The position numbers and the translations under genes were made by a program. The notes beneath the pieces are model-generated. The model saw nothing but the letters and a program-made list of their open reading frames with translations, had not been told where the DNA came from and did not search any database. Below, in pieces: positions 16,656-64,000 of a stretch of DNA of 64,000 nucleotides (position 1 is the stretch's first letter; each line of letters begins with the position of its first letter). The DNA is taken from positions 9,411-73,410 of the forward strand of contig CBDUZI010000001.1 of assembly GCA_965371665.1 (NCBI GenBank), written 5' to 3'. The DNA is from an uncultured bacterium. GTDB lineage: Bacteria; Oederibacteriota; JAAXVQ01; JAUVAV01.

Positions 16656-16789
16656 CTTAACCGCAGATGCACGCCGATTAAGAATCTTTTTTAAATCCCC
16701 CCCTCCTCCCCCCTTGAAAAAGAGGGATAGAAGAAGCACCCTTAGTAAAGGGATGATTCGGGGAATTTATCTGCGTTCATCGGCGGTTA
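16656..16789. repeat. intergenic repeat element, type A, full MITE-like unit with terminal inverted repeats
   Basis: Left end TTAACCGCAGATGCACGCCGAT (16656-16677) is the inverted copy (19/22) of the right end ATCTGCGTTCATCGGCGGTTAA (16768-16789). The spacer is about 90 nt. The right-end TTA provides the stop codon of the OmpA-fusion gene (16789-16787). Confidence 0.7.
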
Positions 16790-18556: not shown

Positions 18557-18591
18557 CGTTATCACCCCGGTCCAGCCGGAACCAAAAATGC

Positions 18592-18666
18592 GAAAAAATC
18601 ACTATCTTCCTGCCACAAGTGCTTAATTGCGTTCATCTGTGTGCATCGGCGTTCATCGGCGGTTAA
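18592..18666. repeat. intergenic repeat element, type A (internal part + duplicated right core)
   Basis: GAAAAAATCACTATCTTCCTGCCACAAGTGCTTAATTGCGTTCATCTGTGTGCATCGGCGTTCATCGGCGGTTAA, located between the 316-aa gene stop and the OmpA-fusion start. Confidence 0.75.
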
Positions 18667-18675
18667 TTTTCCACA

Positions 18676-20478: not shown

Positions 20479-20492
20479 AAAAAGCCTTTTCA

Positions 20493-22298: not shown

Positions 22299-22434
22299 AA
22301 CCATTTTACCTCTCATTTTTTTATTTTTGTTTCTGTAGGCATGGAGATAAATGTCGTCAAATTACAAAACTGCACAATTATTATAGCCCCCCTTTCGCTG
22401 GAATTTTCCTAACCCGGCCAAACCAAAACCAAAT

Positions 22435-24344: not shown

Positions 24345-24435
24345 CCTTTCATACTTAATTCGCCGTTTACCTTAGGTTTGCATTCTTGCAGCCTGTAAAG
24401 AAGTTTATATTTATTCCGCTCCAGATAATTTTTTT

Positions 24436-25338
24436 TCAACGAGTGTCTAATCTTTTACTAAGTTTCAATTGCCCCAGCGATAAAATCAGAAGCATAATCC
24501 CCAGTATAACGGCTTGAGCCGTAGCATAACCAAAATGGTATGACTCAAAAGCCATCTTATAGATACGCGTTACCGGCACCTCGGTATGGAATCCGGGACC
24601 ACCATTGGTCATGGCAATTACCAGGGGAAAAGTCTGCATAGTTCCCAACAGGGTTAAAATGAAGACTAAAGTCGCAACGGGTATCAGAGAGGGAATCGTA
24701 ACATGAAGAAATCTTTTCCAGGCATTAGCGCCGTCAACCTGGGCCGCCTCATACAATTCAACCGGTATTACTTGCAGACCCGCTAAAAACAACAAAAAAG
24801 CATTACCCAAACCCTGCCAGCTCTGAACAATCGCCACTGCAATCAGCGCAGTATTTGGATCCGCCAGCCAGGGACGGGTAATATTTTCCAGGCCAATAAG
24901 GCGCAGCCAATAATTTAAAATCCCATATTCATAATTAAATATGAAACGCCAAATCAGGCCAACTACAATCAGCGAAAGTACCGGAGGAATATAGAATATC
25001 AGCCGGTAAAAATTTTTGGCACGAATATCCCGGTCAACCAAAACTGCTAGAAATAATGCCAGGATATTCTGTCCCACCAGGGCAAAAACCGCGATAAAGA
25101 GCGCATGACCTACTGAATTCCACCAGACTTTATTTTGGGTAAAAATATCAACATAATTATTCAGTCCTACCCAAATAGGGTTGGAGGATATTCCATCCCA
25201 TTCGAAAAAACTGATTCTAAAGGTTTCCAGAAACGGATAAAGTCCGAAAATCAGAAAAATAGTCAGCGCCGGTAGCACAAAAAAGTAGGCTTCCCAGTTC
25301 CGCTTGGTTTCTTTCCAGTACAAATTCCATCCCGGCAT
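24436..25338 (-). CDS. carbohydrate ABC transporter permease (MalF/UgpA type)
   Basis: 300 aa, GGGAGG 7 nt upstream of the ATG, six hydrophobic segments, EAA-loop motif YEAAQVDGANAWKRFLHVTIPSLIP. Confidence 0.9.
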   Translation of the reverse strand: MPGWNLYWKETKRNWEAYFFVLPALTIFLIFGLYPFLETFRISFFEWDGISSNPIWVGLNNYVDIFTQNKVWWNSVGHALFIAVFALVGQNILALFLAVLVDRDIRAKNFYRLIFYIPPVLSLIVVGLIWRFIFNYEYGILNYWLRLIGLENITRPWLADPNTALIAVAIVQSWQGLGNAFLLFLAGLQVIPVELYEAAQVDGANAWKRFLHVTIPSLIPVATLVFILTLLGTMQTFPLVIAMTNGGPGFHTEVPVTRIYKMAFESYHFGYATAQAVILGIMLLILSLGQLKLSKRLDTR

Positions 25339-25620: not shown

Positions 25621-25661
25621 GTAACTTGTCAGTCACATTAGTACCGTGACTGACAAGTTAC
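25621..25661 (-). terminator. perfect 16-bp stem-loop immediately 3' of the giant gene (candidate attenuating terminator / mRNA 3' stabiliser)
   Basis: GTAACTTGTCAGTCAC (25621-25636), 9-nt loop, GTGACTGACAAGTTAC (25646-25661). It begins 1 nt after the TAA stop (25665-25663). No U-tract follows on the coding strand (AAAGCAUUUGAACC), so it is not a canonical intrinsic terminator. Confidence 0.4.
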
Positions 25662-25662: not shown

Positions 25663-28600
25663 TTACGCGGCCATGGCGGTGCTGCGGAATATCCTCCGCC
25701 TGTATTTCTCAAACGCATCGCGGTCGATGCTCACGGGCAGCAAATTCAGGATGTCCCGGAATGCGCCCAAAGCTCCGCTGTTTCCGGGCTGCAGGAGCAG
25801 CCCAGGTACCAGGATGTCTTTATGCTTCACGCCCCGCGGGGTCGAATCCCATGCAGCCAGGCTCTGCGCCTCGAGGCTGGCCATGCTTCTGCACAGTTCG
25901 CTGAAAGTGGCCACAGATCGCTCGTGGTCTTTGATTAACGCCCGGGCCTCGGCAATGTGCCCCCTGGTTCGCAAGCGCCTGATCTCGACCCGCTGGGCTT
26001 TGAGCATGCGGATCATGGCTTTTACAAAACGCTGCGTGTTCTGTGTGCTTGGATTCAGGCTGAAACGCAGGTAAGCCTGGCCGAGTGCGCTTTCCGGATT
26101 ACGCAGCAGATCCGCTAGCGTTGAGTTCACTCCTACCTGGTTGAGCACTACATCAATATAACCCATGGGATTCTGACTCCTCATATTTTTGAGCACAGGC
26201 TGCGCAATCCCTAGGGGCAGGATGAACGCGGCTAGGCGCATGGCCTGCAGGCCTAGCGTGCTCCGGACAGGCAAAGCCGGGATGGCCTCCTCGACCTGGC
26301 CGTCAAATACTCTGGCCTTCACACCCACAGGCAGTTTGTCTGCAGCCACCATAGCCGGCGTGATCTTGGTATTGAGTGGGCTGGAGAGCTTAAAAACCAT
26401 TTGGGCGGACATGACAATCTTAACGTCGCCAACCTCAAACTCATGGGTGCTGACCTGGCCGGTAGCGACCGCGCGTATAAACCGCTTTTTGATTAATTCT
26501 TCTCCGATATCCCAAATCTTGTCGTTCTGATTTTTAAGTCTGGCCAGCCGCACAGACTCTGCCCGTTCGGCCTCGGCCAGCAAGACAGGTCCGATTTCGG
26601 AATCCAAGGGAACCAAAGTGCCGGCAGCTACAGGAGTTCCGTCTGCGGCTGACCAAGCAGCAGTCAGGAGCTTATTCAGGAACTGCAGCCGCTTGCTCAC
26701 GCCTGTGTCCTGGCAGGATTTCTTCTTTAAATCATAGAGGGCCTGCTGCACCCGATTCTGGAGGTTCTTATAGGAAGCAGGCATAGTCATCAGGTAGACT
26801 TTTTGGGCCTTGACGTCCTCGTCCGGTTGTGCTAGCTCACGTTCAGGATCGCCAACAGGCAATTCCGCCTGGCTCTGAATCAGGAGCGAGAGCAGGTCAT
26901 TGAAGACCATGGCCTGGAGCTCGGACGCCAAGCTGCGGCTCTCCCTGGCCAGATCGCGTAATCTTGCAGCCTGACCGCCTTCCTCTACGCCCTCTACGGA
27001 TTCCATTACCTTCAACAAGGTTTCCAGGTTCGGTTCAGCGCCCTCCTGCAAAGCGGTCTGCAATTGTTCGCGTATCTGAGTTAAGCTGAGATCTTGTTGT
27101 GCTTCTGTAAGGTTTTGGGCGGCGGTCAGCCAAATTTCTGCCAAGCGAATAATTGAATGCACACCTAAGGCAACAGGTTTTCCTGTCTGTTTTTTGATCC
27201 AGGTTAATGCTGGTGTCCCAATTTTGAGCGAATCCGATCCCTGTTCAGGTTGCTCCTCGTCCAGTTCCCTGGTCCCAACCCCGAAGCCCATGGCCATGGC
27301 CAGCGGATCCAGCCGGGTTTTGGCGTAATACCGCTCAGCCTGGTAGCCCGCGATTACTGCAAAGAGGAAAGCATTGATGCGGTAAACCAAACGGTCCAGG
27401 CGCGAACGCAGGCTGTTGTCCAGTTCTGGCACCTGCTGAGAAAGAGCCTGGAGCAGGCGGTCTGGCACATAAATCGTAGGCCGTTGCGCGCCCTTACTGT
27501 CCAGGTCTCCGTACTCAAGATACGCGCCCAAAGCCTGGCCATGCACCAGCCGGCTAAACCCGTTCGCCTGGAGAGCGGAGAGTGGTCTAAACAGCACCTG
27601 CTGAATCTTGAACTTACGCGCTGCGGCTGCATCTGGAATCAACAGCAGGCGTTTCATCCGGTTGAGCAACGGATTGTTATCATCTACGACCACAGGCTCG
27701 GCCGTACGAGGGTTGAGGAAGATCAAAGTCGCAGCCTGCAGGAGGGCCAGCACTGGCATTAAAAGTCCTGTTAGGGCGCCGAGTGGTGCTCTCAAATTCA
27801 GGTTCCCGGCCTGGCTGCTGTCATTAAAGAATAGGGCTGAAGTCAAGCCGTAGCGCAAAAGCCTTAAGGGCCAGAACCGGATGCCGCGATAAGGCAGATT
27901 CATGTCCTCCCCGGCCGGCAGGATCTGGTGCAGACGCTGCAATTTGCGGACTAATGTTGAGGGGCCGGCCGTATCCCCTGTAGGATGAGCCTCTCGCCTG
28001 CCAGTAAGCACGGCATCCTGCTGTTTTTCAGACAGGCGAGACGCCTGTTCTAATAATAACTGAATAGTTAACTTGTGGATCGAGCACACCTGCGACCAGT
28101 AGGCAAGCAGCTCTGCAGCCATGCGAGTGCGCGGTTCCAGGCCTTTTTTCCGGCGTGCCTGGTGATCGCAGCGGTGGGCATCCTCATGCTCGAAGATCGA
28201 GCGCTGTTCTGCAGGTGTGAGATAGGAGAGCCGCACCAAATTGGCTATGATCTTGCCGCTGCCAGGATCGTAGAAAGTGATTTTGTTCAGGTCAGTGGCA
28301 GAAAAGCCGGCGCGCTGCTCTAGGGGCAAGACCGCCATGTCCACAACATTGGGATTTTTCACGAATTGCGCGATGACTGTCTGCTGAACATCGCCCCGAG
28401 GCCGGCCATCTGCAGCCCTGCGGCCACTCCACCAGATGCGGGCAGATTGCAACAGGAAGAAGCCGGCTATGGCCGGCATCAAGACTACACCCAGCCCTCC
28501 CAGGATGAAGCCGGCCGCACCCAGGCCCAGGCCTAAGCCAGTGAGCCCGACCAAGGACGCATAGCCGAATACCAGGGTTGCGTAAGCGCCCATGGCGCCA

Positions 28601-31600
28601 AGGGCTGCCAGGGCAGCGGCTGCCAAGCTGCCAATGCTCGAGACCAGTTGGACGCCTTCTCTGGGCAGGACCTGCCGCCAATGTTCCAGATATTCCAAAA
28701 TTTCTTCGGTCGGCGGCAAGCCTCGCAGGAAATCAGCCGTATCCGCAAATCCGAAATACTGCGCGTAGAAATTTAAATCCTTCTGATCGGTTGGAGATAA
28801 TTCATCATACGTGTATTCGTTGATCGCCGGCAGGTCTAGCTCAGGCAGATGATTCGTCGAATAGAGATACACTCCAGCATAAGAATCAACCAGATCGTAC
28901 AATTGTCCATAAGTCTGAAGCTCGTTCACATTGCCGATGTCTTCGATCCGGTAGCCGGCTTTGGCTAATATCCGCCGGAAGTCTCCCTCGGAAAACTCGT
29001 AACAGAAATATCCTCCGCCCCGGTATTGGTGCAGTTCCTGATTAAGGACATTGACCCAATTTCTCCAGTCACGGGCATCCAGGGTCTGCTGTCCGAGAAA
29101 CTCAGGCAGGGTCTGGGTTCCCGGGAAGGGCTGGGTAAGCAGCTGATCACCATAGGAGGCGAGAAAGAAAGCTAACTGGTCAAAGCGTAAATTTAAAGTA
29201 TTGACGAAGTTCTCAAAATCCCGATAGCCCATATTCTGCGCGATTTGATTGTATTCTTCCAGGGTGTAATCGCGGCCCAAAACGTGGTTTAAAGCACCTG
29301 CCAGACGCCCGACATTATCCAAAGTGATGGTTTCCTTGCCTCCCTGCTCCACATAAACCCGCTGACCGTCCTCACCTCTAAGATTCAAGGCGTAGAGCAG
29401 GTTTTCAAACAGGGCGTTAGTCTTACCGGACAAGGGATGGTAATAACCTGTTTTCCCAAAGTGGAAGGGACTGTCTCCCAGGAACTGGCTGAGCTGCGGC
29501 GGATAAACTTGCTGGTTTTTATATGTGGCCAGGTCCCAGATATAGTTCCAACTGCGGCTGGTTACATGGATGCCGCTCCAGATCACAAAGGCCGCGAAAA
29601 CGCTTAATTTTGAGCTGCGTGATACCCGATACAGGAAATTATTGAATCTTTTGGTCTTGGCCAGCGCCACCATCAGTGATAGAAAAAACACCGTACCAAG
29701 CTGTAATCCCCAGGTGTTGTACCACATCCGGCTGAAGTTGGCGATAATCTGGAGTTGTTTGGGTACTTCTTGGCTACCGGACAAATCCCGCAAAAATTCA
29801 CGGATCAGCGCCTGTTGCAGAGCCCGGTCCTCTGCCTGTACCGGGTAATTTTGGAGAGCCCGGGCATCGGGGTTGACAGAATCCAGCAGGGTAGACCGGG
29901 TCGGCTTTTCCCATACCGTCATTCCGCCCCGCAGGAAATCCAGGCCTGGCAGGACGCCAATCTGCTTCCAACCCGTGGCCACCAGCAGCCGGTTATATCC
30001 CGCATTTCCACTGATGACACGGTCTAAGCCGTATTGCTCATTATTTATTAAAATATCAATCAAGGGTGTCATGGAATTCATGCCGCGCTCAAAACCCAGG
30101 GTCGCAGCATCGTATCTGACTTCTGAAGGCGTTCCTTTGAAGCGCTGGTTGTACTGAATGGTATCCGCCATACGGCCCAGGGAAACGCTTGGAATGCTTG
30201 TGATAATCGGGAACTCCGCTCCTACGACCAGATAGCGGGTGTTCACCGTTCCCAGGCCTCTTAAACTGTTCGTATCTAAAAGCATGTTCAGATCCGGATA
30301 TCCAGACGGATGCAGGGGAACGATCTCTTGGCCGAGTTGCAGTTCTCCTGGTCCTGGAAATGCCTCTGGCACTCCTTCGGCGCCAGCCTCGATTTTAATA
30401 ATCCGTCTTCTCATATCTTGAGTCTGGGCGCCGATCACCAGGTTTGGCGTCGACCCTGTCTCCTGCAGAGCTATGTTTGCCGGTATTTCACCTTCCCATT
30501 CATAAACCGCTTCCAATCTTTCGCTCAAGGTTTCACCTTGAGCGGTGATTCCTTCCAAGTCAGACGAAACAATAGTTTTGACTACAAATTCATAATACTC
30601 ATCGGTTTCTACATCTTTTAAAAGCAGTTTTCTGACCTCCGGGGTATCCAGGTTGTAAACCATCACTCCTGGGGCATAAGCCGGGGTAAGCCGAACCCAG
30701 GTCTCTGGCTCCCCAGCGCGGTTCGCCATATCCCGAGACACCTCGATAATGATGTTGGAGTTGGCGCTCGGCGTGCGGCTGTGTACTCGGGCAATCAAAA
30801 ATTTAGGCAATTCCCGCAAGCGAAGTCTCCGGCTGGCAAATCCATATTCCTCGATTTGAGTTGTTGTAATTAGTTCCCCACCCTCGACCCGGGTCGATGT
30901 AAACCAATCCTCGGGATTTATTGGAATATTAACTTTCGGGCGAGGTAGTTGTCCGGGTTTGATTTTTTCCATAACCAAGGCTGGAACCCGGATAATGTAA
31001 AAGTCAAACCAGGCTCGGGCAGACCGGTTTTCAGTCTCGCTGAACTGATCGACTACGCCTAATGAAACTTCGAAGGATTGGTTTCCAGATAAACCCCATT
31101 CCCGGAGCAGATCTGCCAGATTAATCCTCTCCTGGTTACTCTGGCTGTTGAATGCAGCATAAACGTATCCGTCTGGCAGGGACGGATGATGAATGGCGAC
31201 ATAGTACGTGCGGGTTATGTCACTGATCTCCATATTCAGCCAGACATTTTCGCTGTCCAGATCCACGCGGATAGGCTCGGGCATGCGCACGCTGGCCCGA
31301 TTGGCGCCGGAAGTATTCGCGCCGCGAACTAGCAGGCCTCCCTCTTCATTCCAGTCTACCCGCGCATCCTGGAGGTGTGCCTCCTGCAGCTTCACAGAGG
31401 TATAATAGTCATCGATTATCTTGTGCGGTTCAATATCGCTTTTGTCGGCGTAAACATGCATGACCCGGTCTGCGCCCGCGGGATCGGACAAAGCCGCAGT
31501 GTTCTCCTGCCCTATCTCTCCAAAGCCAGCAGCTTCGACTTCAGGCGATTGCGAAACTTGCCCGGCCTCGAACGAGCCGAATCCTCCGCTGATATCATGC

Positions 31601-34600
31601 TCCGTGAATACCGCGCGGCCGATTTGGCGTACGTAATCATCGCCAGCTTCAGCCGGAAAATTCCCGAGCATCAAGAAACAGTTCAAGTTGTATTCATGCA
31701 GCATATTTTTGATTCTTTCGATCTGCGGGCCGACCGGTTGGTGCATGTCTTGCACCTGGATGGAGATACCATCGACCTGCGCCAGGGTAAGAGGTCTAAA
31801 CAGGATATTATGGAAGGCATCTGCATAGTCGAGCTGAAGAATGAGCAGATGTTTGTCACCGTCGATTTCTTTGAGGAAAGGAATCATTCGGTCATACCAT
31901 TTAATCAAGTCTTGTCTGAGATTGATTCTCTGCCAGTCCGTCTCGGGGGTGTTTCTCAACAGGACATCGGGTCTGTCGGACAGACTATAAACAATATTAG
32001 GATAACTATGCAGCCTTTCCACTATCGTCCGGACGTAATTTTTATTCTCTTTATAACTTTTTGCTATTTCGTCTGGGTAAATCGTATGTAACAACGCTCG
32101 ATTGAGGCTTATAATATCTTCTTCTGCCAGGATCTTTTGGGAAGCTGCCGCTTCTTTCGCTTTTGTTAATAATTGCTCAACTGCTGGAGATAGTTTGAGC
32201 TTGTCAGCATCCACTTTGGTATATAAATCAGGCATTTTCAGGACGGCATTGAATGCTTCAACCGCCTGTTTTTCTGTAAGGGTTGGCAGTTCCTCGATAC
32301 CCATGTCAAGTTCTGCAAGCAAAATAATATCGGCTTTACTTTCCCCTTTTAGTATGTACTTTAATCCCTCGACATCTAAATCGCCTTCGCGAAACACCGA
32401 AGAGGACTCAATGTCTCCCCCAAAATCCTGGTAATTTTCAAACAAGCTGACCACAACCATGATGTTTGCATCCTGGGCTAGCTGTATAAAATTTTCTAAC
32501 TTGTCCAAGTAGCTGATGTTGACATTGGGGCCGCCGAATTCAGTGTAGGGAATCTGCATAATGACACTGTTGGCATTCTTATCTCGCAGGCCTTGCACGA
32601 GTTGGCCCAGGGATTCCGGTGTAGCATTTTCCCACCAGCCCGGCTGGGAAGTGTCTAGATTAAATCCCCAAAGCTTGACCACGTTGCCCTGGTCATCGGT
32701 AATTTGTCCGTAGCCCATGGCCGGAGCTCCGCGCACCTGGTAAGCACCTCGTCCGCCCATTTCGATGGTTTGCAAGGACGGCACTTCATAGTCGAAGATC
32801 GCCTGCAGCTGTCCGGTCCCGGTAACCTGCAACCAGTAGTTACCTTCACGATCCTCCACCTCCCTGTAGTCCACGCCCACGTATAGTCCCTGACGGTTAC
32901 TCGGCATGGAAAATTCACTTCGCCAGGAGCCGATGTCGATGCCTGCCTCAGGATAAACAAAACCTAATCGAGACCCCCAATCCATGCTATTACCCTTAGA
33001 GTCAAGCATGGCTTGGATTTCAGGCGGACACTGGTCCGGCCGCAACGTCTCAATGCCCCGAATGTGCGCACCCATGCCGGCTACAGGGGAAACACCTCCC
33101 GTAGGCAACGTTTTGCGCGAAGACTCCGGGTCCCTTTCTATTTGGAGCGGTGATTCCTGCCATTGGCCGGTTATACCCATATCAAAGCGTATGGCCCCTC
33201 CCATCTTTGCCAGTTTCTCCGGAGATAACACGATGTAATAAGTACTGGGAGCAGGGATATCCCAAGTAGCTAAGGGTTTGGGAACACCCAACATAGATTT
33301 CCTGGACATTGCTTGTCCGCGGGTTTCTATGCGCGATATGGCCAGCCTGTCCGCTTCCTCGGTCGCCAGTATTTTAGCCTCGGCTATTTTCTCCTCTGTT
33401 TCCGCACCCTGCATGAATCTTTCCAGGGCGGTTTCATAATCGGCTCGCCAGGCGCGCATTTCTACATCGTTCCCAAACTGTTCCTCACTAGGATCTAGTT
33501 TAAAATACAATTGCGCATTGGGGGAAAGTTGATCCACCTGGATGGCAATAATATTGTAGCCCTCTGGCAGAACCATCTTCCGGCTGACATAGCCCCGGCT
33601 ATGCCGCGGGCTGGTTCCGATCAGCGTCAAGCCCTCGGAGTCGGCGCTGAATTTTAAACCGTATGGCTCCCACTCCCAAACCCGCACTCCCTTTACAGAT
33701 ACGTCGTACCGGTCCCCGGCTAGGGGAACACTCAAGCGGCCGCTGTCCAGATTATCGGGTACGCCAGGATCATACGGCAGGATTTCGGGAGCCGGCCGCT
33801 CGGTGTAGTCTACATTCAAACCCTGCTGGTAGGCGCGCATGATATTCATGGCAATACTATTATCTAAAGTTTCATCCTCGCCTATTCGGTTCCGGAAAAA
33901 GAGAGTTTGCAGATAGCTAGCTGCCCGCAACCGATCCCAGCCTTCAATATTAGTCCACTCCGTGGCCAGATCCGGGTTCAGGCTGAGGAAGGGATCGAAT
34001 CCGGCAAGGAGCGCTTCATCGGATAACGCCGGGTTTTTCTTCCAAAAGTTGATTCCCATCCTTTCTTCGTGTCTAATAAGATCGGTAGATGCCAGGAAAT
34101 AATTCAGGGCAGACGCGGGAACAACGGAGAGATTCGGGAATCCGGGAATAGTTATCTTTCTCCAGCGCAAAGCTTCCCGGGTTTTTTCGGCGTGGGCATC
34201 CACCATGCCGAAAAAGTTTTCTATGGTAAGCTGATTAGGCTCATAGGCCACGAATAATTCCGAATGCTGGATCGGCAGAGGCCTATGTATGCCTTTTAAG
34301 GGCTGAAATCGATCGACCATCCATTCCAGACTACGGAGGAAGATGTTCGAGCCTTCTGTAGCAATATTTTCATATTCTCCGGACTCAAAACGCCCCAGCC
34401 CGACCTTCACGTCCGCCAGGGGACTCTGGCCGCCGGCCACAGGCTCAGGCCGAATAAAATGGGCTTCTGGTCCATACCACAATTGCCGGGCATGGATCAT
34501 ACCGTCCAAAACTACATGCGCATCCTCCAGCGAATTAATTCCGTACTCTTTCAGCCGGCCTTCATCGATCAATCGTTGCAAAACCAGCTCGAAATTTTCT

Positions 34601-37600
34601 TCGTAAATCACGCCTTGGGACCACATAGCCTCGACATCAAATATCAGCTCTAAAACGTCCTTCAGACCTTCAAAGCCGTAATCCCTGAGTATTCCGTTGT
34701 GATGGAGGTAGATCACCAGCAGTAAGTCTTTGGCTCGGCCGCGCGCCGCATAAAAGTTCTGCTGATTATCCAGCAAAGCACACGCCTCGTTAATGTCTAT
34801 ATCGTAGTTTTCCAGGACACCACCGGCTTCCAGGTCATTTAGTACCTCCTCGAAGGGCGTGTCCTGTAAAACGTCCCAAAGGACATCGATATTGTCGTTG
34901 ACAAATTCCATCTCATGGAAAGGCAAAAGCCTGACGTCTTGCCGTTCCAGCAAATAGGCCGGATGCCGCGTCCAGACATAGCGATAAAGAATCTCGGGAG
35001 TCCAGTACTTAGAGAAGAAATACTTGGGCCAAGGCAGCAGTGTCTCCCCGTTCATGCCTGAGTCTTCTCTTAAAAGCCGCTCGAACTCCGCATAGGTAAG
35101 CGGATCATAACCATTCTGTTCAACGAGATGATTCAATTCAAGCAAGATGGCCCGCATGGCCACCTTCTGGTCAGAGCGCTCCACACCCCTTCCGATATTC
35201 GTTCTTTTCAGTTCCGGCATGAACGTGGATTTCAATTCATGCTGCAGGCGGTCGCCAGGATAAAAATTGAAAATCTGCCAGAGGTACTGCGTGACTCTCG
35301 ATTCCAGTTCCCGGGCAGAATACCTGGCCAAAATATCGTTCCGGTACGGCTCCCAAAGGCCGTGAGCCTGCAGAAGTCTCATTTTCTCCTGGGGTGAAAT
35401 CGTACCGGCCTGAAACCGCCGCAGGGCGATGATGTCCCTGACGTCGAACCGGCCTTCCTTTTGCAGGGCGTTCAATTGCACGAGCAATCTGTCCGCTTCG
35501 TCGGGAAAAGCCCATTGCTCGGTTAGCAGGTTATCGAAACCGGCCGGGGAAAAACCCATGAGGCTTAAAAAATCTTCCAGTTCAATGCCATTTTTCGGAA
35601 GAGACCGCTCAACGGCTGGAATACCGCAAAAGTCGAAGACCCGCGATTGTTCGGTGAACCCGGTTACTGTCGGCCCGACCAGCGGATTGCCAGAAGCGCT
35701 AATGGCAAACTCAAATCCACCTGCTTCGGCCACCATGAATTCCCGGTATTCCTGTTCAAAATTATCCGGCCGAAAGACCGCTTCATCCGGAACAATGTAG
35801 TTCCAGTAATATCGTTCATCCCAGCCATCGGCTTCAAAGGCTGCCCAGCGAAGACGGGTTTTTCTCTCCAACTCGGCCACGATCCATTGCTCATCCTGGA
35901 TTACGTTCTGCACGTTTTTGGCATTCACCTGGGAAGGCTTGAGGAAGCGGGCAATTTCATTCTGGATTCTGAGGTACCAGTTATACCTGGCCAGTTCGGA
36001 AACATTTGGATTATTCGGATCATAGCCGTAATTAATATCCCGCACCGTTCGGATGAAAAAGGTAAAACTGATGCCCATGTCCTGGCAGAAAGCCCTGATG
36101 CTCTGGTAGTCGCTTAAGTCCAGATGCTCCATTTTCCACACTTCAGTCTGCTCCGATTCCAGCCGGACATCTTCCAACGTTCCGCAACTATCTTCCGGGC
36201 TGGGATGGGTAGTTAAGCTAATTCTTGTTTCCACGACATCCTCGATGGGTATTTCCGCCTTTTCAATTACCATCAGGAGGTCCACCTGGCTGTAGCCGTG
36301 GATAAACCACGGTCTGACTTTTACAGTAACCTCATCCTTGGTAGTGGTTTTTACCGTTAGGATGATGTCAAGGTAGCCTTGCCTGCCCATATAATTACCA
36401 GTAGAATTGTAGCGTAAAAACCGGGTGGCCTGGATTTGTTCTCCGGATACGATCCAGCTGATTCCTGCTGCGGGTTGGTCAGCCAGGGATTCAAAGGCGT
36501 AATGATTCTCGACGCCTTGCTGTGTGGCGGTGAACCGGGTCGGGTCGGTGGCATCCTGCGCCAGCATCACCACGTCGCCGGTGATCTCTGCCGTCGCGCT
36601 GGTTAAAGGCATAACCATGGTCGGAAAAGGCTCGGCCCGAACCTGGTTCGCTGACCGGTAAAGCACCTCTTTGGTGCTTTGAGAAAGTAGATGGGAATCG
36701 ATGTAAGCAGGAATTTCACCCTCTTGCTGCGTTACCGGAGTAAATATGGTTTTTAAAGCTCCGGGAAAACCGCCTGTCTGTCGCTCCTCAGCTTTACGGG
36801 CGGCGGCTTGTGGTTTGCCCACTTCGCTGGTGGTTGAGCCAGAAGATGCGAAATCCGTTGCAGGCTTTCTGGAATCCGGACCGGTATAATAGATCAGGTA
36901 ATCCAGACCCTGTTGCAGGCTGGGTATGCGCAGCGGTCCGATTCGCATTTCTGGCGTCAGCATGGCAAGTCCTTCCGAATATAAATAACCTGATAGGCGG
37001 GGGGATTGTCCTAGCCAGGTAAGTACACTAAGGATAACCGGCGTGAAAAACCACATCAGTCTCCACGCTGCCTTAGAGCGCCAGCTTGCTTCCTCAGGCA
37101 GCTTCTGATTTCGCGCCTTTTCTTTGCTCGCTCTCCAGAAATCCGGACGTTCTGGCAAGATAGCCCGCAGCTTCTGCTTGTCCCGGAAAATCCAGAACAA
37201 TCCAGCAATCATCGAAACAAGCACTCCCGCGCTGACCGCAAACAGAAGAGGAGCGATAAAGTTGCCCATAAGAAAAGCAATAATGCAGAAAACCAGGGTC
37301 AGGCTGAAAATAATTTTCCCAAAAACACGCGCAGTGGATTTGCCCATGACACCGGTTTTTTCTGCAGCCACTAAGCCGAGCGCTGCCAGAATACTGATCA
37401 TTAGTGCAGCCAGGATATCTAAAAATGCAAAATGGATTGCTCCGAAAAGGACAACCGTAAGGACGAATCCGAATAAGAAGAAATAGCTGAATTTAAACAG
37501 GCCCTTGGTAATATCCCCGGCCACCTTCCAGGTGGCCCAGTTCAAAGGCATCTGGCGTAAATGCTGCACATACTGCCTCAGATTCCTGATGGAGCCGCGG

Positions 37601-40600
37601 ATCTCTCCCACCAGTTTTTCCAGCACCAGCAACAGCAGGAACAAGGCGATGACGGGCACGATCAGCGACAAGTTGAAAATTATTGATAGGATGATCATTA
37701 CCACGGCAGCCATGGCGACGACTTTCCAGCGGCTGCGGAGAAGTTGCTTTAATCCGAAGTAATTGAAATATTTGAATAAGACTGCGAGAAGAATAATTGT
37801 CGGCACTGTATAGACTATACTCATGGGATCGGCAGATAAAACCGTTATCACATTCTGGTAGGTGGAGATAAAAGCGGTAATTATCCAGTCGATAATATTT
37901 AGAATAATTTCAACTATTGGAGCAGGAACATATGGGACCACAATATTTCTCCAGACCCATATGCTAATTGGGACCGGCAGCATGAGTACGATCGCCCGGA
38001 TGATGGCCACGAAGAGGTCCTTGGTTAGCAAGACCGGGATTTTAAGCCGTTCCGGCATCTTTTGGACAACTCGCTGGTTAAATACCCAGGATATTCCAGC
38101 TCCCACCAGAGTGGTTTCCAGCATCCGAAGCAAGGCTTCACTAAATGGAATAGCGGTAATGATGCCCAGGCCAGGGACCATGAACAAAACCGCAACCTGG
38201 TACATCAAGGTCGGAATCACGCCATAGGCCATCTGGGACAGGGATTTCAAGCTACTGTGGCGGAAAACCCGTTCGATTAAGACTTCCAGGATATAGGCGC
38301 TCAAGGGGGCCAGGATGATAATCAAATTAACGGTGAGGATGGTTTGCCAGACATTATACTCCACGCCGACTTTGGCTAGATTGGTGATATTTTGACCCAA
38401 AAAATCAGAAATACCCGTGAAGAAGGCGAATACCAAAACATTCGCAAAAAACATTCCACTTATAGGCATCTTGAACCGGATAAAGTAATCTGCACCGTAC
38501 TTCCCGGATACTACAATGGCGGCCTTGACGGGTATCAAGATTTGTTGCTTAACACATTGCCACAGAGGCTGGTAATACCTTTCCCAAAGCTCAATCAGCC
38601 GATCTTTGAGCTTTATCAAAATATCCTTCACCCGACGCAATATATCCAAAATCTTCTTCTTCACCCACTTAAGCCCGTCGCTAATTTTCGTAATTGCCGT
38701 TTTCACAAAGCGGATCATTCGCTGGACGAACTCGATTCGCAGGATCAGAAACAGGAGATTTTTGACGAACCTGATGGCAGCTTTGACGCGATTAACGATT
38801 TTGATGACGATATTATCTTTAATCCAGATAAGAAAATTCACAATAATGGGACGGATGATCCGGACAAAGGGACTGACGATCTCCTCGTAAATCCTTTTCG
38901 GCAGGGTAATTGGCAGGACGAGGGCCAGCTGTTTGACCACGTGTCCGATCTCGTGAACGGTTATACGTACAAAGCCATGGGGATCTAATCCGATATCGGC
39001 CAGGATCCGGCCGATGGGGTTGACCTTCCAGACCCACTGTGCCCATCTCTGGTACCAGGGCAGCTCTCTTTGCAAGGTCTCCGCAACTTGCAGCATCATG
39101 TTGCGCATGACCCGGCTCGGCGTGCCCTGTCTGGATTGGAGGGCGCGGTTGAGCAAGGCCGTCTCGGTCAGGGCGCGTTTGCCTGCCTCGGTCTCGAAAA
39201 AGGCATAATAGTTTTCGAATTCCTGGGCAATTTTTAAGATATTGGGCGGAATGAGGTCTTTAAGTTCGTTTCTGGAGGGTTCACTGACTGCCATTTCCAC
39301 CGGTACTTCAACCGCCTGCTTTAATCCCAGGTACCGACCAAGCACACCTAAGACTATCAAGAGTCCCAGGCCCATGATGCTTCCAGCGAGGATGGCTGCT
39401 CCACCCATGAGCATGGTAACCATCCCGCCAGCCAGCAGAGCCAAGCCAGTAATACCCGCAATAATCATCCGCGTACTTACACGAATGGGGGTATCCACCT
39501 GGCCCTCCCCAGGCGCCATGGTTTCCGGTGGAGAGGTTTCCCTGGGCGGAACCTTATCCTGCGCGAATGGATACAGGGCCTCCAGGAAATCCCCCATCAT
39601 GGCCTCACGTGCCTGGTCAGAGGTAATGGCGTCGATAAACTTCAGCAGATCCGTAGTATATTTATTAGCCTGCATGGCTTCGGAATCCGATTCCACCACG
39701 TCCGTGCCCAAAAAGGTGATTCTTCCACCGAGCTCCTGATTAATCTTGATGGCTATTTTTTTGATTTCCAATTTTCCCCGCGACGTTTGGGCCAATTCCC
39801 GGATTTCATCGGCGATTTTGACCAAATCAATCGTGGTGCCTTTTTCGAGATAGAAACGCCGCTTGAAAAGCTGGAATAGTTGTTCCGCCGTGATCTCGAC
39901 CGCTTTGCCCGCGAAAAACGTCCGGTTTAAATGCCAGGCAAACAACTTCATGCCGTTCATGCGCATTTTAGCGACATCTTCCCTCATGATGGCTTCATAA
40001 CCGCCCAGAAAGAAGAAGCGTAGGCCTTCGGCCAAATGCACACGGTAAATATCCGGGATCGAGCGCAAAGCCATGGGCGGAGCTCCTGCGAAATTGGCCA
40101 GCGGTCCCGGCCGTCCGGTTCCGAAAGTATGGGACATTATGTGGATGGGACCCTGCCCCTCGATGACTCCCTGGTATTTGGCCAGATCCTCCTCCTCGAC
40201 CCAGCCGGTATGAAGTATCGAGCCGTACAACAGTCCCATGATGTATTTGGCATAGGCTTCACCCGCATATTTATCCCCGGCAAACATAGGACTCGGGTGA
40301 TCACCACCGGTAAAATGAATTTTCGGAATCACGCCAGGCAAGGCTTCTTCCACCGCCCGCTTCAGTTCTGCTTCCAGTTCATTCAAGCGCTCCTCTGCAG
40401 TCAGCCGGGCTTCCACCTCAGGACGTAGCTGAGCACGAAGTTCTCCCCGTTTTCTTTCGATTATGCGCACCATGGCGGGGTAATAAATGTCGGTAAATTT
40501 GTAGCTTCCCAGCTTGCCAAAGGTGAAAAATATCCATTTCTCTATTGGCACCCGCGTAAAGTCCACCGGTGGAGTGACCTCGGCCATGTCCAGCAGGTGG

Positions 40601-43600: not shown

Positions 43601-46600
43601 TATGCTTTTTTCAGCCGGTCATGCTCAACATAGACCTCTCCCAGCCGATCATAGGCTGTCCGAATCTGTTGGCCTAATTCAAACAGATGCTGCTCCAGGG
43701 ATATCGATGGATTCAAGGATGCTGCCTGCATGGTTGTTACTAATGCCCGTGCCTCAAGGTCGACTACGTCCCGGGCCTGGGTTATAAGGCCGGGTAATTC
43801 CCGCCGGCGCTGCAGATTATCCTTTGTTTGTACGTTTTCTTGCCGTAAAGCTTCCAGTTCTTGAATCAGCCGATCCTGCTTGTGTCGTGCATGTTGCAAC
43901 TGCTGATACTGATGGTTAAGGGAATCTTTACACTCAAGCAGTCCGTCTTTTTGCGCCTCCAGTTCTGCAATCTTTTGTTTTACCGTCTGAAGTTCTCCGA
44001 GGTCTGGAGCTAAATAATCTTCTGCGCTCATACCAAAGGGTTCTTTCATGATCAGGAATCCAACATCTGATACCTTAACGTCTTGGGAACTTCGCGCAGG
44101 GAAGATGCGGCCGGTGGGAATACGCGCCTTGGCGCTCCCGGCGTAATATTTCAACTGAGCCAGGCCGGGCGTGCGGGAGCGTGTGAAATAGCGCTGCAGT
44201 TTTCTGGCAAGTCTGGAACTCAGCGGGCGGGCGCTGACGACGATGCGGTCGATGCTGCCGGTATGTGCATCCACGCCCAGAGCATAATTTTCATGGATTT
44301 CCGTAATGTAATAAGTCCGGGTTTTTCCGTCGTCGCCGGTCATCACGAAGGGAGTGTCATGCGCCAGGCAGGCGTTTAAAAGCTCCCTTCCGCTGGAGAC
44401 TTCAGGAAATCCGCTTTCAGGCGAGGCCTTGACCTGGACGACTTGCTCAATGACAGGAGCCAGTTTTCGTTGAAGGATTTGTAAAGAAGTTATGGTTTCC
44501 AACTCGAGATTTGCTAAGTGCTGTTGATATACGGGATTTTCGGCCATGCTGGCCAGCAAACGTTCCAGCACGGCGCCTTCGTAACCAGCCGATCGCACCC
44601 AGCTGAGTTCTGCGAATTGAATATCCAACAAGATTTTACTCAAAACGGATAAACGCGTCTCGGTGCTTAACATTTTGCAAATCATGTCGAGTTTATATTG
44701 CTGTTCGCTATCCCTGGGGCTGGGACTGGATAAAAGCTCAGCGAGCTTTGCTTGCCGGTTTTCGGTATTATCCTCTTTAATGCCTTTAATATATTCAACC
44801 ATCTCTTGGTACGCCTGCTGCCTGGCTTGAGTTTGGCTGTCCTTGGCTCCTGTCATTTGGCGGGTTTTCTCCTTAATGGCCTTGCGCTCGCCATTTTTGA
44901 AAATATAGAAAAGCAGCGAACCTGCTTTGATTAAAACCAGGATTCCGGCCAGGGCAATGACTACACCGGCTATGATGGCTAAAGGCAGGGAAAAGACTTG
45001 CAACAGCATTACCAGGGAAACGGCCAGGCCGGCCGTGGTCCCGATCAGGATCGATTTCATCGGCAGCGAGAGCTTGGTCAGAGGATAAAAAGAATTGAAT
45101 TCAAAGGTGGCATTCTTCCAGATGCCAGGATGTTTTTGATTTGCATAGGTGAGAAACGCGTCATTATCAATAATCCCGGCTTTATCGAAACCGGATAAGC
45201 CGTGGATTAAAAATTCACTTAAACTCTGCAGCTTGAGAGGGTGGTTACTAATATGAATTCTTCCCACCAGAGTACGGGTATCCTCCACTGCCTGATCATA
45301 AAACCGGTTAATTCGTGCCGATAACTCAGCCTGGACCTCGGCAGGAGTTTTTCCCTCAGCCTTCCAGGTTTCAATTTCGGCAAAATAGAGTTCGCTCACA
45401 TGATAGGGGTTGAAACCGAGCATAAGCGGACAAGTTTGGCCTCGATTTTCTTTTTGCCATTCGGTTCTTAAGCTTTTCACCTTATCGATTACGGCTGTCA
45501 GCCGTTGTTCCCCCCGGCTAGCAAGAATATGGCCGGTGGCATCATCGCGCAAATTGTACTTCCAGGCTTCTTCCTTCGCTATCACCATTTCAATAACCAG
45601 GTTGATATGATTTCGTGCTGCCAAAGTCACTAAATTCATTTCCGCCGACCTGCGATCGAGAAGATTATGTTTTGCCATATATAAGCCGATGTATTTTTCC
45701 CACTCATAGGGATGAAAAACAACATCCACCGGTTCAGGATGTCTCTCCTCCAGGATCGGCGCTATATCAGCCGTTTTATCTCCAAAGGCCACATGATAGG
45801 CGGCTACCTTCAGTCTTAAGCATTTAGCCGCTTTAATCTGTTCGCGGGTGGTATAAAGTTCATACTTTTTGCTGCCCATAAATAATGTTATATAAACCGA
45901 ATAAGCAATCATGGTGAGCAGGATTATGAGATTGGACAGCCAGCGTATTTTCATGATTTTCGAAATCCCAGGTATAAATTCGGGCAAATTTATTATCGTC
46001 GAAGCTATGGCGGCATTTCGAACAAATTTCTCGGGTGTGTACATCCGGTCTTCAGGCTTTTTCTCGACCGAGATTTCGGCCTCGACACTGCGCGTTTCGC
46101 GAATTTCCGCGCCTGCCTCGGGATATTTTAATTCATCGAAAAATGCCAGCACCTCTTGGGAAAATCCCTCTACGTTCTGGGGACGGTATAATCTGGCTTT
46201 TATTTCTGGGCTGTCCAGGGATATATAGCCGAGTTTTTCAGCAGGATAATCCGCAGCCTGAATCTCAGTCCGAATTTCCAGGGCCTCGACATCTTCGCCC
46301 AAACGAATCTCGAAATTGTGACCAGCGGCTTGCAATTGATCCTGGAGGGCATAAATATAATGCATCTCTTCGCGAGGCGCCATTTCTTCGGAAAGCATAA
46401 TCGCTACCACGGGTACAACGGCTATACGTTTACGCCCGGCTTCGGCTATTATTTCCTTAATTTCCCGAACCAGGGTCGCGATCTGCTCTTCCCGATTGGC
46501 TTCCGTCTGGGATGAAGGCAGCAATATCTCTGCCTCGGGATTAAAGGCGCCGGTCGCTTTCGTGAGCCTTACCCCCCCCATACCGAAGCCTTGAGAAGAT

Positions 46601-49600
46601 AGGCGCACGGCCGGCAGGATGACTTCATCGCCGCTTAAAGCGGCAAGGTCTTGGGGAGAAATCAAACCTGCGCTGGCGCCTAATTTTTGGGGATCCAAAT
46701 GAGAAGCCAGAACTATACCAGCAGCATAGCCTTTATCGGCAAGCCATTGATTTGCTTTGGCGATAATGAGTTCACCGTTGGGTTGACTTAAAGCTTCACT
46801 ATTAATCATAAATCTTTTGGTCCCGGACCATTGGCTGATATCCGACCGGGTTTCTTTGTCTCCTTGCAAGGCAAAATAGATTTTTATTCCATAAAGCAGG
46901 ATCGGTGGCACCAGTATAGCCAGTAAGGGATTTATCACTGAAATGCTCAGGATACCTAAGCCGCTTAAAGTTTCGGCCAGGTTAGCAACCGCATCTAAAC
47001 CTAAAAAGCGAGTGTACACCCAGAAGCCCAGCCCCATTCCGGCAATGATTAATCCGCCCCCCGCGGCTTTGCCTGCCATTCCAATTTTACCCTCTAATTT
47101 AAAAAGGCGGAGTATTTCGGCGAGTTTTTTCGCTCGCACGCCAAACAATTCAATAAATAGAATGGCGCCGAGCCACCACAACAAGTGCACCAGTTCAAAT
47201 CCCATGATCGTCTCTATCAAGCCAGACCAAAATACGACGTAGGCTGCAAAGGCACTACTGCCTAAAAAGCTTGCTATTCCCAGAAATTTATTCCTGGTTA
47301 TTCCATATACAATAAAATAACCCATAACCAATGCAGTCAATGCAACAGCACTTCCCAACATGATTTGAGTTCCAAAGAAAAGCAATCCCAACCCAAGGGC
47401 AATGGCTCCCAGGGATGCTAGAACCTTGTTCTCCAGGGCGCTCCGGATTTTCGAGGATTTAAAGGCAGGCGTATCCTTGCCTTGCAAGAGGGAAATGACG
47501 GTCTGTCCCAGATTTTTACCTAGAGCGTCGATTTGTTCCGAACGCAATGGGGTTGAGCTCTTCTGGATAATTAGTTCCAAAAGTTTATTTAAAGGCGTAT
47601 TTTTTCGGCCTGGATTTATGCCTTTGGCCGTGCCTAACGTCAAAGTGCTGCCTTCGGAAAATTCGGCGGGTTGATAGGGATTCGGACATAGATTCAAATT
47701 CCCTTGCCCAGCCTGACCTGTCAAAACAAAATGTTTCTCGACTAACTGCTTTATGGCTCCGTAGTCAGAATGACGCAAGACGGTTTCCAGAAGGCCATTT
47801 TTAAGTTTACTTATAACTTCATCTGGTTCCTGTCTCGGCCAAAGATAAGCCGCAGCACCTATGGCGAAAAGCAGAGCCCGGGGGGACTTCGCTGCAGCCA
47901 GCGAAACTCGCAAAGCTTGAAGTCTTTTCTCTTGGTCTGCGTCTAAAGTTTGGGCACCAGCCAGATCAATAATCTCCTGGTCCAGCCTATGTATCTCTTC
48001 ACGCTCTTTTTCCTCTGCCTGGGAACCCAATGTTTCTGCCAAAGTCTGAAGCATATGTTGGTTTTTTGCTTGAATACTCTGAGTATCGCGTTGTACCGGT
48101 TTAGCTTTTTCAGTTTTTTTAGCCGTCATGAGTACGTTTAAATTCGCTTCGAATATTTCCGGCTTGCTTCTGTCCAGTTTTAAGGCCACGTTTAAAAGGT
48201 TTTCCGCTTCCTCGCCCTTGAATCCAGCAGCTTGGATTTTCTGACGCAACTGCTCTTCAAACTTATCAATCTTTACCTCTTTTGGCTTTTCATCTTCATA
48301 CAGCTCTTCCTGCTTCTTCAATTCTTTTTCGGCCCAGGCCTTGGCCTTTTCCTCGCTGAGAACCGGGCCGATCAGGGTTTTATATTCCTCGCGAAGATCC
48401 GGATAATCCTTGCTAAGAATCATGCCGGCAAAAATTTCCAGGAAGCTGAACCATTTCCAGCGATTCGGCTTATCGAAGAGTGTGCCCGGGTATTGGGTGA
48501 CATCATGACCCGTGACATGGAAGAGTCTTTGCTTAATCGCGGCCAATAAAAATTCTCCCGGCTCCCGTCCGCCCACTCTGGTCTCGGCCTCGGATTCAAT
48601 CCAGGGAATATCCTTGCCCATGACCTTATGACCCGACATCAGAGCCAGGGTAATGAGTTCGGTTTCGAATTCCATCTTGACGCTGCTGGCAAGTTCAAGC
48701 GCTTTCTTGACAACCTCCGGCCGAAAAGCCTTAAATCCGGCCTGCGTATCCGGCACTCCTCCCAGCGGGACAATCGCCCGGACCATGAGATTAAATCCCA
48801 GGCTCAGGATATGCCGCGCAAGCGGCTTGGCAAAAACCACGGATTCCGGGCCTACGCGCGACCCGTAAACCAGTCCGACATCCGCATTCTCAGGATTGGT
48901 CAGCGGTTCTGTGAGCTTGCCAAAAAGCCCGGCATTGGTGGAAACATCGGCATCTATATAGCCGGCTATATCCACCTCGTCTTCTTCCACCATTATTTTA
49001 TAGGCCTCGTACAAGGCTCCGCCTTTTTTTTCCTGCCTGGCGAATTTCAAGCCTTTGCGGTCGAAATAATACTCGACCCTGATCTGGTCTGCCCGGTGTT
49101 CAAAATCGCTTTCGATCACATTCTGCGCCAGCCGGGCTGAAGCGTCATCGTCTGTGGTAAAAAGAATCCTGGGGCCTAAATGTCCGGCCTTTTTATCAGG
49201 ATCACTTGAATAAGCTACTCCCTCTTCTACAATAGTAATCGTCATCACATCCAGCTTTTCCACACCCTCTTTTTCAGCCTTATCCAGCTTTTCTTTAGCC
49301 TCTTCGGCGTCTTTCTTGGCATCTTCCACCTTTTTTTCAAGGTTTGGGTCCTGCTTAGGAACTAACAGGTTAAGCTTTTTTAATATAGCCGGCAGACTGA
49401 ATATCAACCCGCCCAAGCCGGCCAGCCCGATACCTGTCCAGGAACCCAATATCAAGGCCGCTGGAAAGAAAAAAGTCATGACCACTCCGGCGATGATTAG
49501 AAGAATGCCGATAATCCCGGCAGCAAGCACAGTGTTTTCATCCCAGGCATTCAAGGCTTTACGCTTTTTGCTCAAGTCTTCGTGGTTTTTACGCGCCTCT

Positions 49601-64000: not shown

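Follow-up and report, generated by a model that had tools for sequence, protein, structure and literature searches.

The locus

The window analysed here is a stretch of 64,000 nucleotides of contig CBDUZI010000001.1 from an uncultured bacterium. It carries one giant open reading frame (ORF), and the product of this frame, called the window protein below, contains a complete SecY channel domain, a hydrophobic hairpin and a complete SecA motor following one another in a single chain. Two genes for ATP-binding cassette (ABC) sugar permeases lie beyond the stop codon of the frame, followed by further genes of which some resemble surface or outer-membrane proteins. We are highly confident that the giant gene and its architecture are real. 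The coordinates of the features are collected in Table 1.

The giant reading frame

The initial annotation had described a single minus-strand frame of more than 38 kb that is still open at the window edge, and our results agreed with this description. No stop codon was found in this frame from 63999 to 25666, compared with 712 and 604 in the two remaining frames of this strand, and the chance probability of such a stop-free stretch was about 1e-293. Reassignment of a stop codon was ruled out, since the neighbouring genes use all three stops: the 15 flanking genes terminate with TAA, TAG and TGA, which indicates the standard genetic code. The codon-usage log-odds, trained on the flanking genes, favoured the giant frame in each of 42 consecutive blocks of 300 codons, and the guanine-plus-cytosine (GC) content was uniform along the frame.

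The first start-like codons of the frame were TTG at 63852 and GTG at 63849, and ATG was absent from the first 200 codons. The earlier translation of positions 63853-63999 was exact and that stretch indeed holds no ATG or GTG, but the GTG it had placed at 63852 lies one codon further on. The first 49 codons were identical at 44 of 49 positions to the internal residues 1035-1083 (window 60751-60897), in agreement with the paralogy to a segment at 60.76-60.90 kb noticed before. Because the paralog of the edge segment sits in the middle of the protein, the true N-terminus very probably lies upstream of the window, as had also been proposed. The internal repeats of about 420 nt and 3.1 kb exist as well, with spacings of 423 nt (85% identity) and 3,102 nt (78% identity), and at this level of identity they are too diverged for a collapse of the assembly. 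No Pfam or NCBIfam family of a repeat adhesin, RTX, RHS or nonribosomal peptide or polyketide synthase (NRPS/PKS) matched, and the earlier statement that the protein is none of these was upheld. On the plus strand, an antisense open stretch of 338 codons (window 62497-63510) was observed, which we assumed to be a side effect of coding-strand composition.

The SecY domain, the hairpin and the SecA motor

The SecY domain matched the Pfam SecY profile over positions 1-304 of 306 with an E-value (E) of 2e-40 and 139.6 bits (cut-off 32.2). It was aligned to residues 14-418 of E. coli SecY (E 1e-34), and a profile built from 134 canonical SecY proteins matched it over positions 14-421 with an E of 2e-64. 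Its identity to the best canonical SecY proteins was about 30%, and the built-in SecY is treated here as a putative divergent paralog of the housekeeping SecY. In the region of the plug and the pore ring, the segment 'GGAL..SIFGLGLAPFFLASLII' was conserved, and the positions of the pore-ring residues I82 and I86 stay hydrophobic (F and L). A profile search of the giant protein found no second SecY-like or SecA-like domain elsewhere in the chain.

SecY helix 10 is followed by the hydrophobic hairpin, which was present at the same place in all four of the family members that were aligned. Both of its flanks were rich in Arg and Lys, which fits a hairpin with both ends in the cytoplasm, and we infer from this pattern that it probably consists of two helices in that orientation. 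A helical linker of about 60 residues was located between the hairpin and SecA.

The SecA motor was represented by the two nucleotide-binding domains (NBD1 and NBD2), the preprotein-binding domain and the scaffold with the two-helix finger. Pfam SecA_DEAD matched with an E of 1e-14 and P-loop_SecA also matched, SecA_PP_bind (E 0.0016) and SecA_SW (E 5e-4) were both below their cut-offs, and the NCBIfam SecA model gave an E of 1e-30. Five colinear segments were aligned to residues 90-821 of T. maritima SecA, with modest individual scores. The SecA motifs were intact, namely Walker A (TGQGKT), Walker B (IDDEG), motif III (SAT) and motif VI (GRVARQG), and they were conserved in the orthologs. The motif 'LRMFLKNRDPLMRYK' corresponded in the alignment to the finger region of the T. 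maritima protein, and at the tip of the two-helix finger 'LRMF' (Phe) was aligned to 'LRSY' of T. maritima.

A family of fused SecY-SecA proteins

An exhaustive phmmer search with residues 2050-3249 as the query against 1.84 billion representative proteins, plus one metagenome scan, gave six fused SecY-SecA proteins in all, the window protein included. All of them were fragments, labelled 'hypothetical' or unnamed, and from the seventh phmmer match on, nearly all matches were ordinary SecY proteins about 400-470 residues long, with about 30% identity. The closest relative, P0001 (MBN1596347.1, 'hypothetical protein, partial'), contained 3,157 residues with 51% identity and came from an FCPU426 genome (assembly GCA_016929575.1, locus L008, titled Zod_Metabat.219), where it filled a contig of 9.5 kb with both ends open. 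P0002, from an unclassified bacterium, and P0005, from a metagenome contig, had real N-termini about 600 and about 320 residues before SecY, respectively. P0003, P0004 and P0006 were three fragments of one homolog on a single 26.8-kb contig (L115), and the metagenome scan added a frame of more than 2,816 residues from a JGI metagenome (L090). Pfam SecY followed by SecA_DEAD was found in every family member, and five of the fused SecY domains, placed in a neighbour-joining tree, formed one clade against 60 canonical SecY proteins. The family is small and deep-branching, and it is effectively invisible to current annotation.

P0001, whose genome came from another site, was colinear and almost gap-free with the window protein over residues 1061-3960 (about 2,900 residues). 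The identity was 68% in SecA NBD1, 63% in NBD2 and 56% in the C-terminal half of SecY, versus 31-40% in the flanks. By this comparison of sequences the translocon was the most constrained part of the protein, and the difference between 56-68% in the module and 31-40% in the flanks argues for selection on the function of the module.

In L115 (positions 8107-13519) the homolog was colinear too, but it was distributed over three frames with two switches at adjoining residues of the window protein, and its homology ended near window residue 3816. These switches look like insertion or deletion (indel) errors, as the name of the contig suggests long reads, or like the decay of a copy to a pseudogene. 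Such a split relative, together with the fact that a single long contig spans the giant gene while short-read assemblies of the same population are fragmented, would fit an artefact in which the contig is chimeric or mis-assembled or in which separate genes were joined by sequencing errors. We regard such an artefact as exceedingly improbable, however. Sequencing errors create stops and would not remove the approximately 650 that were expected, the codon usage and the GC content did not change along the frame, and the internal repeats were not closer than stated above. In addition, the independent genome of P0001 was colinear without gaps over 2,900 residues, and the adjoining positions of the switches in L115 point to indel errors in, or decay of, a gene that was once continuous.

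Outside the family, the best match to SecA only was P0044 (MCX5713210.1), a fragment of 462 residues labelled Candidatus Omnitrophica with 33-35% identity to residues 2867-3339, which was placed above every canonical SecA in the exhaustive list. Judged from this match, a kinship with the SecA clade of the giant Omnitrophota proteins is hinted at.

Other modules of the window protein

Pfam, NCBIfam and PDB-sequence searches were run on overlapping tiles of the giant protein, and about 70% of it matched nothing known. The initial annotation had called the content a mosaic of enzymes, translocon parts and transmembrane clusters. A glycoside hydrolase family 5 (GH5) domain, a full SecY, a full SecA and helix clusters were indeed found, but the enzymes had been overstated, since the GH5 domain and the SecA ATPase were the only ones recognisable.

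The first GH5 domain matched Pfam Cellulase (PF00150) with an E of 9e-7 and 29.1 bits (cut-off 23.5) over positions 12-269 of 272. It retained the acid/base motif 'TNE' and the nucleophile motif 'FEEMG', by which it is predicted to be catalytically intact, and its weak PDB matches were to GH5 beta-mannanases. The degenerate second GH5-like domain was 33% identical to the first and matched Pfam Cellulase at an E of 0.12. This second domain and the fourth copy of a beta-sandwich module resembling a carbohydrate-binding module (CBM) lie within a stretch of about 2,500 residues without membrane helices. The model of this repeat, computed by AlphaFold2 with the four copies as alignment, was a nine-strand beta-sandwich with a predicted local distance difference test (pLDDT) score of 70.4, and Foldseek gave weak agreement of the model with the CBM fold.

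Further duplications were seen in the chain. The two copies of membrane-helix module A (residues 1-151 and 1035-1181) were 69% identical, and the two tandem units of about 155 residues (1692-1848 and 1848-1995), for which a relaxed Pfam scan gave no family match, were 44% identical. The two domains of about 310 residues were paralogs with 28% identity (E 6e-26).

By a simple and crude hydrophobicity count, 39 uncharged hydrophobic stretches were found, which were estimated to represent 55-60 membrane helices in 17 clusters, and many of these clusters look hairpin-like. The largest cluster outside SecY (residues 8178-8938) matched no family in the Pfam scans or in the search with the SecY profile. 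A word-indexed search returned no homolog of the SecY-SecA region or of residues 8140-8960, and with a profile of the family it gave short fragments of canonical SecA and nothing else. This search was uninformative, as it missed even the sequences from which the profile had been made. Relaxed Pfam scans of all helix clusters and all unannotated blocks gave noise only, and matches to ORF6C, YaeQ and HI1420 were dismissed as short and at or below the cut-offs. AlphaFold2 without an alignment gave a mean pLDDT of 34.6 for residues 7085-8180. Glycosyltransferase, methyltransferase, NUDIX, peptidase, dockerin and TSP3 domains were not detected by Pfam or NCBIfam, even at relaxed thresholds. As far as the sequence can tell, the product is best read as a protein that crosses the inner membrane many times and has no fewer than 12,778 residues, in which helix clusters alternate with large soluble blocks.

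A real frame could still yield several products, as a polyprotein or from internal starts, so that SecY-SecA, the glycanases and other parts would be free. The helix clusters and the linkers between the domain blocks would be possible cleavage sites, and processing of giant Omnitrophota proteins by their C39 and S8 peptidase domains has been raised (West-Roberts et al. 2023, bioRxiv 10.1101/2023.11.21.568195). In the window protein, however, no peptidase domain was found anywhere in the frame by Pfam, NCBIfam or relaxed Pfam searches. The organism uses clear GGAGG Shine-Dalgarno sites, and in-frame combinations of such a site with a start codon numbered 19, against 22 and 2 in the other frames, which is no enrichment for internal starts. 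Moreover, 38 kb without stops and a gap-free ortholog would be costly to maintain unless continuous translation matters. We therefore consider several products unlikely.

Table 1. Coordinates of the giant gene, the parts of its product and the neighbouring features in the window.
Feature	Window position	Strand	Residues	Remarks
Giant ORF	25663..63999	(-)		12,778 codons visible and TAA at 25663-25665; open at the window edge
Membrane-helix module A, copy 1	63547..63999	(-)	1-151	about 3-4 helices; cut by the window edge
GH5 glycoside hydrolase, copy 1	62590..63417	(-)	~195-470	
Three tandem CBM-like beta-sandwich copies	61189..62487	(-)	505-937	about 142 residues each
Membrane-helix module A, copy 2, and further helices	60226..60897	(-)	1035-1258	
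Two tandem units of ~155 residues	58015..58926	(-)	1692-1995	rich in helix-forming amino acids
Complete SecY channel domain	56692..57852	(-)	2050-2436	all 10 membrane helices
Hydrophobic hairpin after SecY helix 10	56449..56667	(-)	~2445-2517	
Complete SecA motor	53200..56430	(-)	~2524-3600	NBD1, preprotein-binding domain, NBD2, scaffold with two-helix finger
Domain of ~310 residues, copy 1	51187..52119	(-)	3961-4271	no assigned function
Domain of ~310 residues, copy 2	45001..45939	(-)	6021-6333	
Largest helix cluster outside SecY	37186..39468	(-)	8178-8938	about 11-16 helices
Degenerate second GH5-like domain	31840..32706	(-)	~10432-10720	catalytic motifs lost
Fourth CBM-like beta-sandwich copy	30967..31422	(-)	10860-11011	profile E 4e-9, and 4e-58 after one iteration
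Perfect 17-bp hairpin	25621..25661	(-)		begins 3 nt past the stop; -29 kcal/mol, z-score -6.0
Two ABC sugar-permease genes	23496..25338	(-)		BPD_transp_1 in both; gap of ~300 nt to the giant gene
Gene pair	16787..19626	(-)		316-residue protein, and protein with N-terminal UPF0164 and C-terminal OmpA domain
Genes for a DUF6259 and NPCBM_assoc protein and a solute-binding protein	261..6784	(-)		the DUF6259 protein has 1,738 residues

Host and glycan-related genes

The two permeases beyond the giant gene were 76-84% identical to those of FCPU426 genomes. For the first permease, identities of 76-79% were found in only four species-representative genomes, two of them titled FCPU426, and the next best match was at about 35%. 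The flanking ABC operon was 52-84% identical to these four genomes, and the second permease, the binding protein, the DUF6259 protein and five more flank genes led to the same loci with up to 84% identity. These identities, together with the origin of the ortholog P0001 from an FCPU426 assembly, place the host in the candidate division FCPU426 and not in Omnitrophota. The initial annotation had pointed to giant genes in Omnitrophota-type bacteria, which was a good analogy, although the organism is of another division. The 16S rRNA cluster of FCPU426 includes Goldbacteria, and experiments have demonstrated that these bind cellulose and possess cellulase activity (Doud et al. 2020, PMC7031533).

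The host bears on the possibility that the window protein is a contact weapon for predation or episymbiosis, a role that has been proposed for the giant Omnitrophota proteins. Such a weapon would attach to another cell and digest its wall instead of foraging on free polysaccharide. As in the Omnitrophota giants, the giant size, the many helices, SecA, a glycoside hydrolase and sugar importers downstream come together here, and the best SecA-only match outside the family, P0044, carries an Omnitrophica label. Yet the host was FCPU426, with cellulose degraders in its 16S rRNA cluster, none of the domain sets that define the two Omnitrophota types was detected (glycosyltransferase, methyltransferase, NUDIX, peptidase, dockerin), and the weak PDB matches of the GH5 domain were beta-mannanases and not wall lytic enzymes. 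A role as a weapon is accordingly improbable in our view.

Genomic neighbourhood

The hairpin past the stop of the giant gene is not followed by a U tract and is thus not a textbook intrinsic terminator. In the FCPU426 relatives, the permease genes, the DUF6259 gene and the binding-protein gene were contiguous and formed one operon. In the window, the gene order at positions 6785-23495 differed from that of the FCPU426 relatives L007, L009 and L010. A block of five genes (207, 358, 1204, 491 and 352 residues in the window copy) precedes permease 1 in the relatives, while in the window the permeases are located upstream of this block and of six extra genes. A block of about 16 kb separates the permeases from the DUF6259 gene, and a 71-nt intergenic repeat with the core 'CCGCCGATGAACGCAGATAA' flanks this block on both sides (22479-22549 and 7035-7105, 90% identical). 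Shorter copies of the repeat were found at 18593-18651, 16766-16791 and 20543-20573, and it had no Rfam match. The repeat may be a recombination site, or else a regulatory element or one like repetitive extragenic palindromic (REP) sequences. No tRNA gene and no Rfam match were found in the window, so that the host was placed by its proteins.

Short-read contigs with 99.9-100% identity to the window were found in ERZ23498918 (ZORZ22-1_SAMN30647028), ERZ25748485, ERZ25748748 and SRR21487743, and they ended alike at 25498-25508, at 22188-22353 and at 21217. These contigs were all short and located in the flank of the giant gene. A 69-base sequence from the end of the window had no exact match among the GTDB species representatives.

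The window also encodes proteins of a surface or outer-membrane kind. The gene pair at 16787..19626 includes a protein with a UPF0164 domain, which we take to be a beta-barrel, and relatives of this pair were located directly upstream of the fused SecY-SecA gene in L090 (982-2751). In L115, a faint OEP-like gene follows the SecY-SecA homolog. The gene pair and the OEP-like gene may encode an outer-membrane partner. The 207-, 358- and 1,204-residue flank proteins (window 9612-15329) were observed to have in common a repeated domain of about 150 residues, of a family that is expanded in the relatives. The 1,204-residue protein had a weak match to SlpA_C (S-layer), and a Por_Secre_tail domain was also present among the window proteins.

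It is established that some accessory Sec systems are dedicated to surface proteins of very large size. The fused SecY-SecA could likewise be an accessory export channel for other large cargo, with the giant chain serving mainly as an anchor or scaffold. The recurrence of genes for surface or outer-membrane-like proteins beside the family members (OmpA/UPF0164, SlpA_C and Por_Secre_tail in the window, OmpA-like in L090, OEP-like in L115) would be in line with this, and the NCBIfam models of SecY2 and SecA2 matched the window protein at E of 1e-26 and 2.5e-25. The canonical SecY and SecA models scored higher than these, however, and the window showed no partner genes of the Asp or glycosyltransferase kind known from accessory Sec systems. 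Since each family member has the covalent fusion and a long tail behind it, a translocon that works on its own chain would be the simpler explanation, and we assign a low probability to an accessory channel for other cargo.

Proposed mechanism

SecA must be cytoplasmic and both ends of SecY are cytoplasmic, while GH5 and CBM modules act outside the cell, and the long hydrophilic loops of membrane proteins need SecA for crossing the membrane. We propose that the earliest segments of the giant chain would be inserted by the ordinary Sec machinery. The built-in SecY-SecA, once made and inserted, would then be a private translocon tethered to its own cargo, and it would push later long hydrophilic segments across, such as the stretch of about 2,500 residues that is free of helices. 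The housekeeping translocons would be spared a substrate that probably needs many minutes of translation. Once exposed, the GH5 and CBM modules would attach to and cleave a polysaccharide, which could be a plant or algal glycan or the wall of another cell, and the cut products would be taken up by the adjoining ABC sugar importer. We give this mechanism as a whole, the self-acting translocon together with glycan foraging, a probability of roughly 0.35 to 0.5. The step at its centre, in which the fused SecY, the hairpin (perhaps as a stand-in for SecE or SecG) and SecA thread the thousands of downstream residues of the same chain across the membrane, is put forward tentatively.

The position of the translocon is consistent with this proposal. 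It starts about 2,050 residues into the visible chain and about 9,200 residues follow it, so that it is located toward the visible N-terminal end, and in the relatives with real starts SecY lies about 320 and about 600 residues from them. This arrangement fits an order in which the translocon comes first and the cargo after.

Several points weigh against the proposed mechanism. The translocon is preceded by over 2,000 residues, among them the first block of GH5 and CBM modules, and these are unable to use it during their own translation. From the GH5 block to SecY, the helices were counted too roughly to confirm an outside position of GH5 together with an inside position of the SecY N-terminus. 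A single frame-long product is an assumption, the action of the translocon on its own chain is pure inference, and about 70% of the giant protein is without a match to anything known. As to the channel and the motor, the NCBIfam SecY model TIGR00967 (E 9e-43) gave 146.7 bits, below its equivalog cut-off of 253.6, and the best NCBIfam score of SecA was 106 bits against cut-offs of at least 800. With both proteins far below the equivalog cut-offs, their activity may have diverged. No SecE or SecG was identified here. In addition, the position of R357 of E. coli SecY ('PGIRPGE') is Pro in the window protein ('PGIPEGE', residues ~2368-2380, window ~56860-56900); this arginine of the C5 loop is important for the functional interaction of SecA and SecY in E. 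coli. The equivalent position was Pro or Ala in P0001 and P0002 and Arg in P0005, and with SecA tethered covalently, the arginine may have become less necessary.

The genomic context of the importer belongs with these points. None of the FCPU426 relatives has a giant gene upstream of the four-gene operon of permeases, DUF6259 protein and binding protein, and three short-read assemblies break 155 nt past the stop of the giant gene. None of the independent contigs read here spans the junction of the giant gene and the ABC operon, and the adjacency of the giant gene and the sugar importer is the least secure part of the picture.

Comparison with known systems

Giant membrane proteins with SecA domains have been described in Omnitrophota, where an 'Archaeovorin' and a 'Dockerin' type were distinguished (West-Roberts et al. 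2023, bioRxiv 10.1101/2023.11.21.568195; Nielsen & Lui 2026, bioRxiv 10.64898/2026.06.07.730766). Genes of at least 10,000 codons were classed there as 'large' and those of at least 30,000 as 'giant' (West-Roberts et al. 2023, 10.1101/2023.11.21.568195), and the window frame, with at least 12,778 codons visible, passes the 'large' mark. The window protein resembles these proteins in its frame of more than 10,000 codons, its many helices, its divergent SecA DEAD and preprotein-binding domains and its mostly unannotatable sequence. A glycoside hydrolase domain is common to both, and so are genes for solute-binding proteins, ABC permeases and glycan-related proteins downstream. The published work, too, suggests that the SecA part exports the giant protein itself.

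The differences lie in the host, which is FCPU426 here, and in the translocon. A complete SecY is fused upstream of SecA in the window protein, whereas the two papers put SecYEG as separate and non-syntenic, and SecY goes entirely unmentioned in Nielsen & Lui 2026 (10.64898/2026.06.07.730766). The SecA scaffold with the two-helix finger, reported as lacking there, is retained here. Finally, each of the two types is defined by its own set of domains (glycosyltransferase, methyltransferase, NUDIX and peptidase in one, dockerin and TSP3 in the other), and these were searched for here and not detected. The giant gene belongs to the class of giant SecA-bearing membrane proteins, and the natural, conserved fusion of SecY, hairpin and SecA is its new part.

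An engineered fusion of SecY and SecA, 'SecYAEG', was able to translocate protein in vitro (Sugano et al. 2017, PMC5562318), which indicates that the geometry of a SecY-SecA fusion is workable. SecY is followed by SecA in one polypeptide in both cases, the order in the construct being given by its name. Unlike the construct, the fusion in the window is natural, has an extra hairpin of two helices and a linker of about 60 residues, and forms part of a chain exceeding 12,778 residues; the construct also needed separate SecE and SecG, of which none was identified here. When the literature was searched for a natural SecY-SecA fusion or for a SecY inside giant proteins, the engineered construct alone was found, and an unremarked entry in a supplementary table of a preprint is possible.

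The SecA2/SecY2 systems of Gram-positive bacteria are similar in concept, as a second, divergent pair dedicated to very large surface proteins. In the window protein the two components instead share one chain with the presumed cargo, the lineage is unrelated, the canonical models score better and the Asp and glycosyltransferase partners were not detected. By the tests available, namely model scores and partner genes, it is not an accessory Sec system of that kind. Modular surface glycanases and systems resembling cellulosomes, among them the GH5 cellulases of Goldbacteria (PMC7031533), likewise have GH5 followed by tandem CBM-like modules, held at the surface with a sugar importer adjoining. 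The modules here would differ in being loops of one polytopic membrane protein, not secreted or assembled through dockerins.

Significance

How proteins of tens of thousands of residues are made, inserted and exported is an open question in bacteria. Published surveys of giant genes reported divergent pieces of SecA and no channel, and here a complete channel and a complete motor are present in one chain. If the proposed mechanism is true, it would be a previously undescribed route of export or insertion for giant proteins, in a phylum that neither of the two giant-gene surveys considered here names. The idea of a private translocon is now directly testable with a fragment of residues ~2040-3620. 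The natural fusion raises the question of whether it can do without SecE and SecG or has the extra hairpin in their place, and it is a natural counterpart of the SecY-SecA fusion that was engineered for single-molecule work. The class of giant SecA-bearing genes extends with this gene to FCPU426, and the cellulose degraders in the FCPU426 cluster suggest that giant proteins may serve glycan foraging besides predation.

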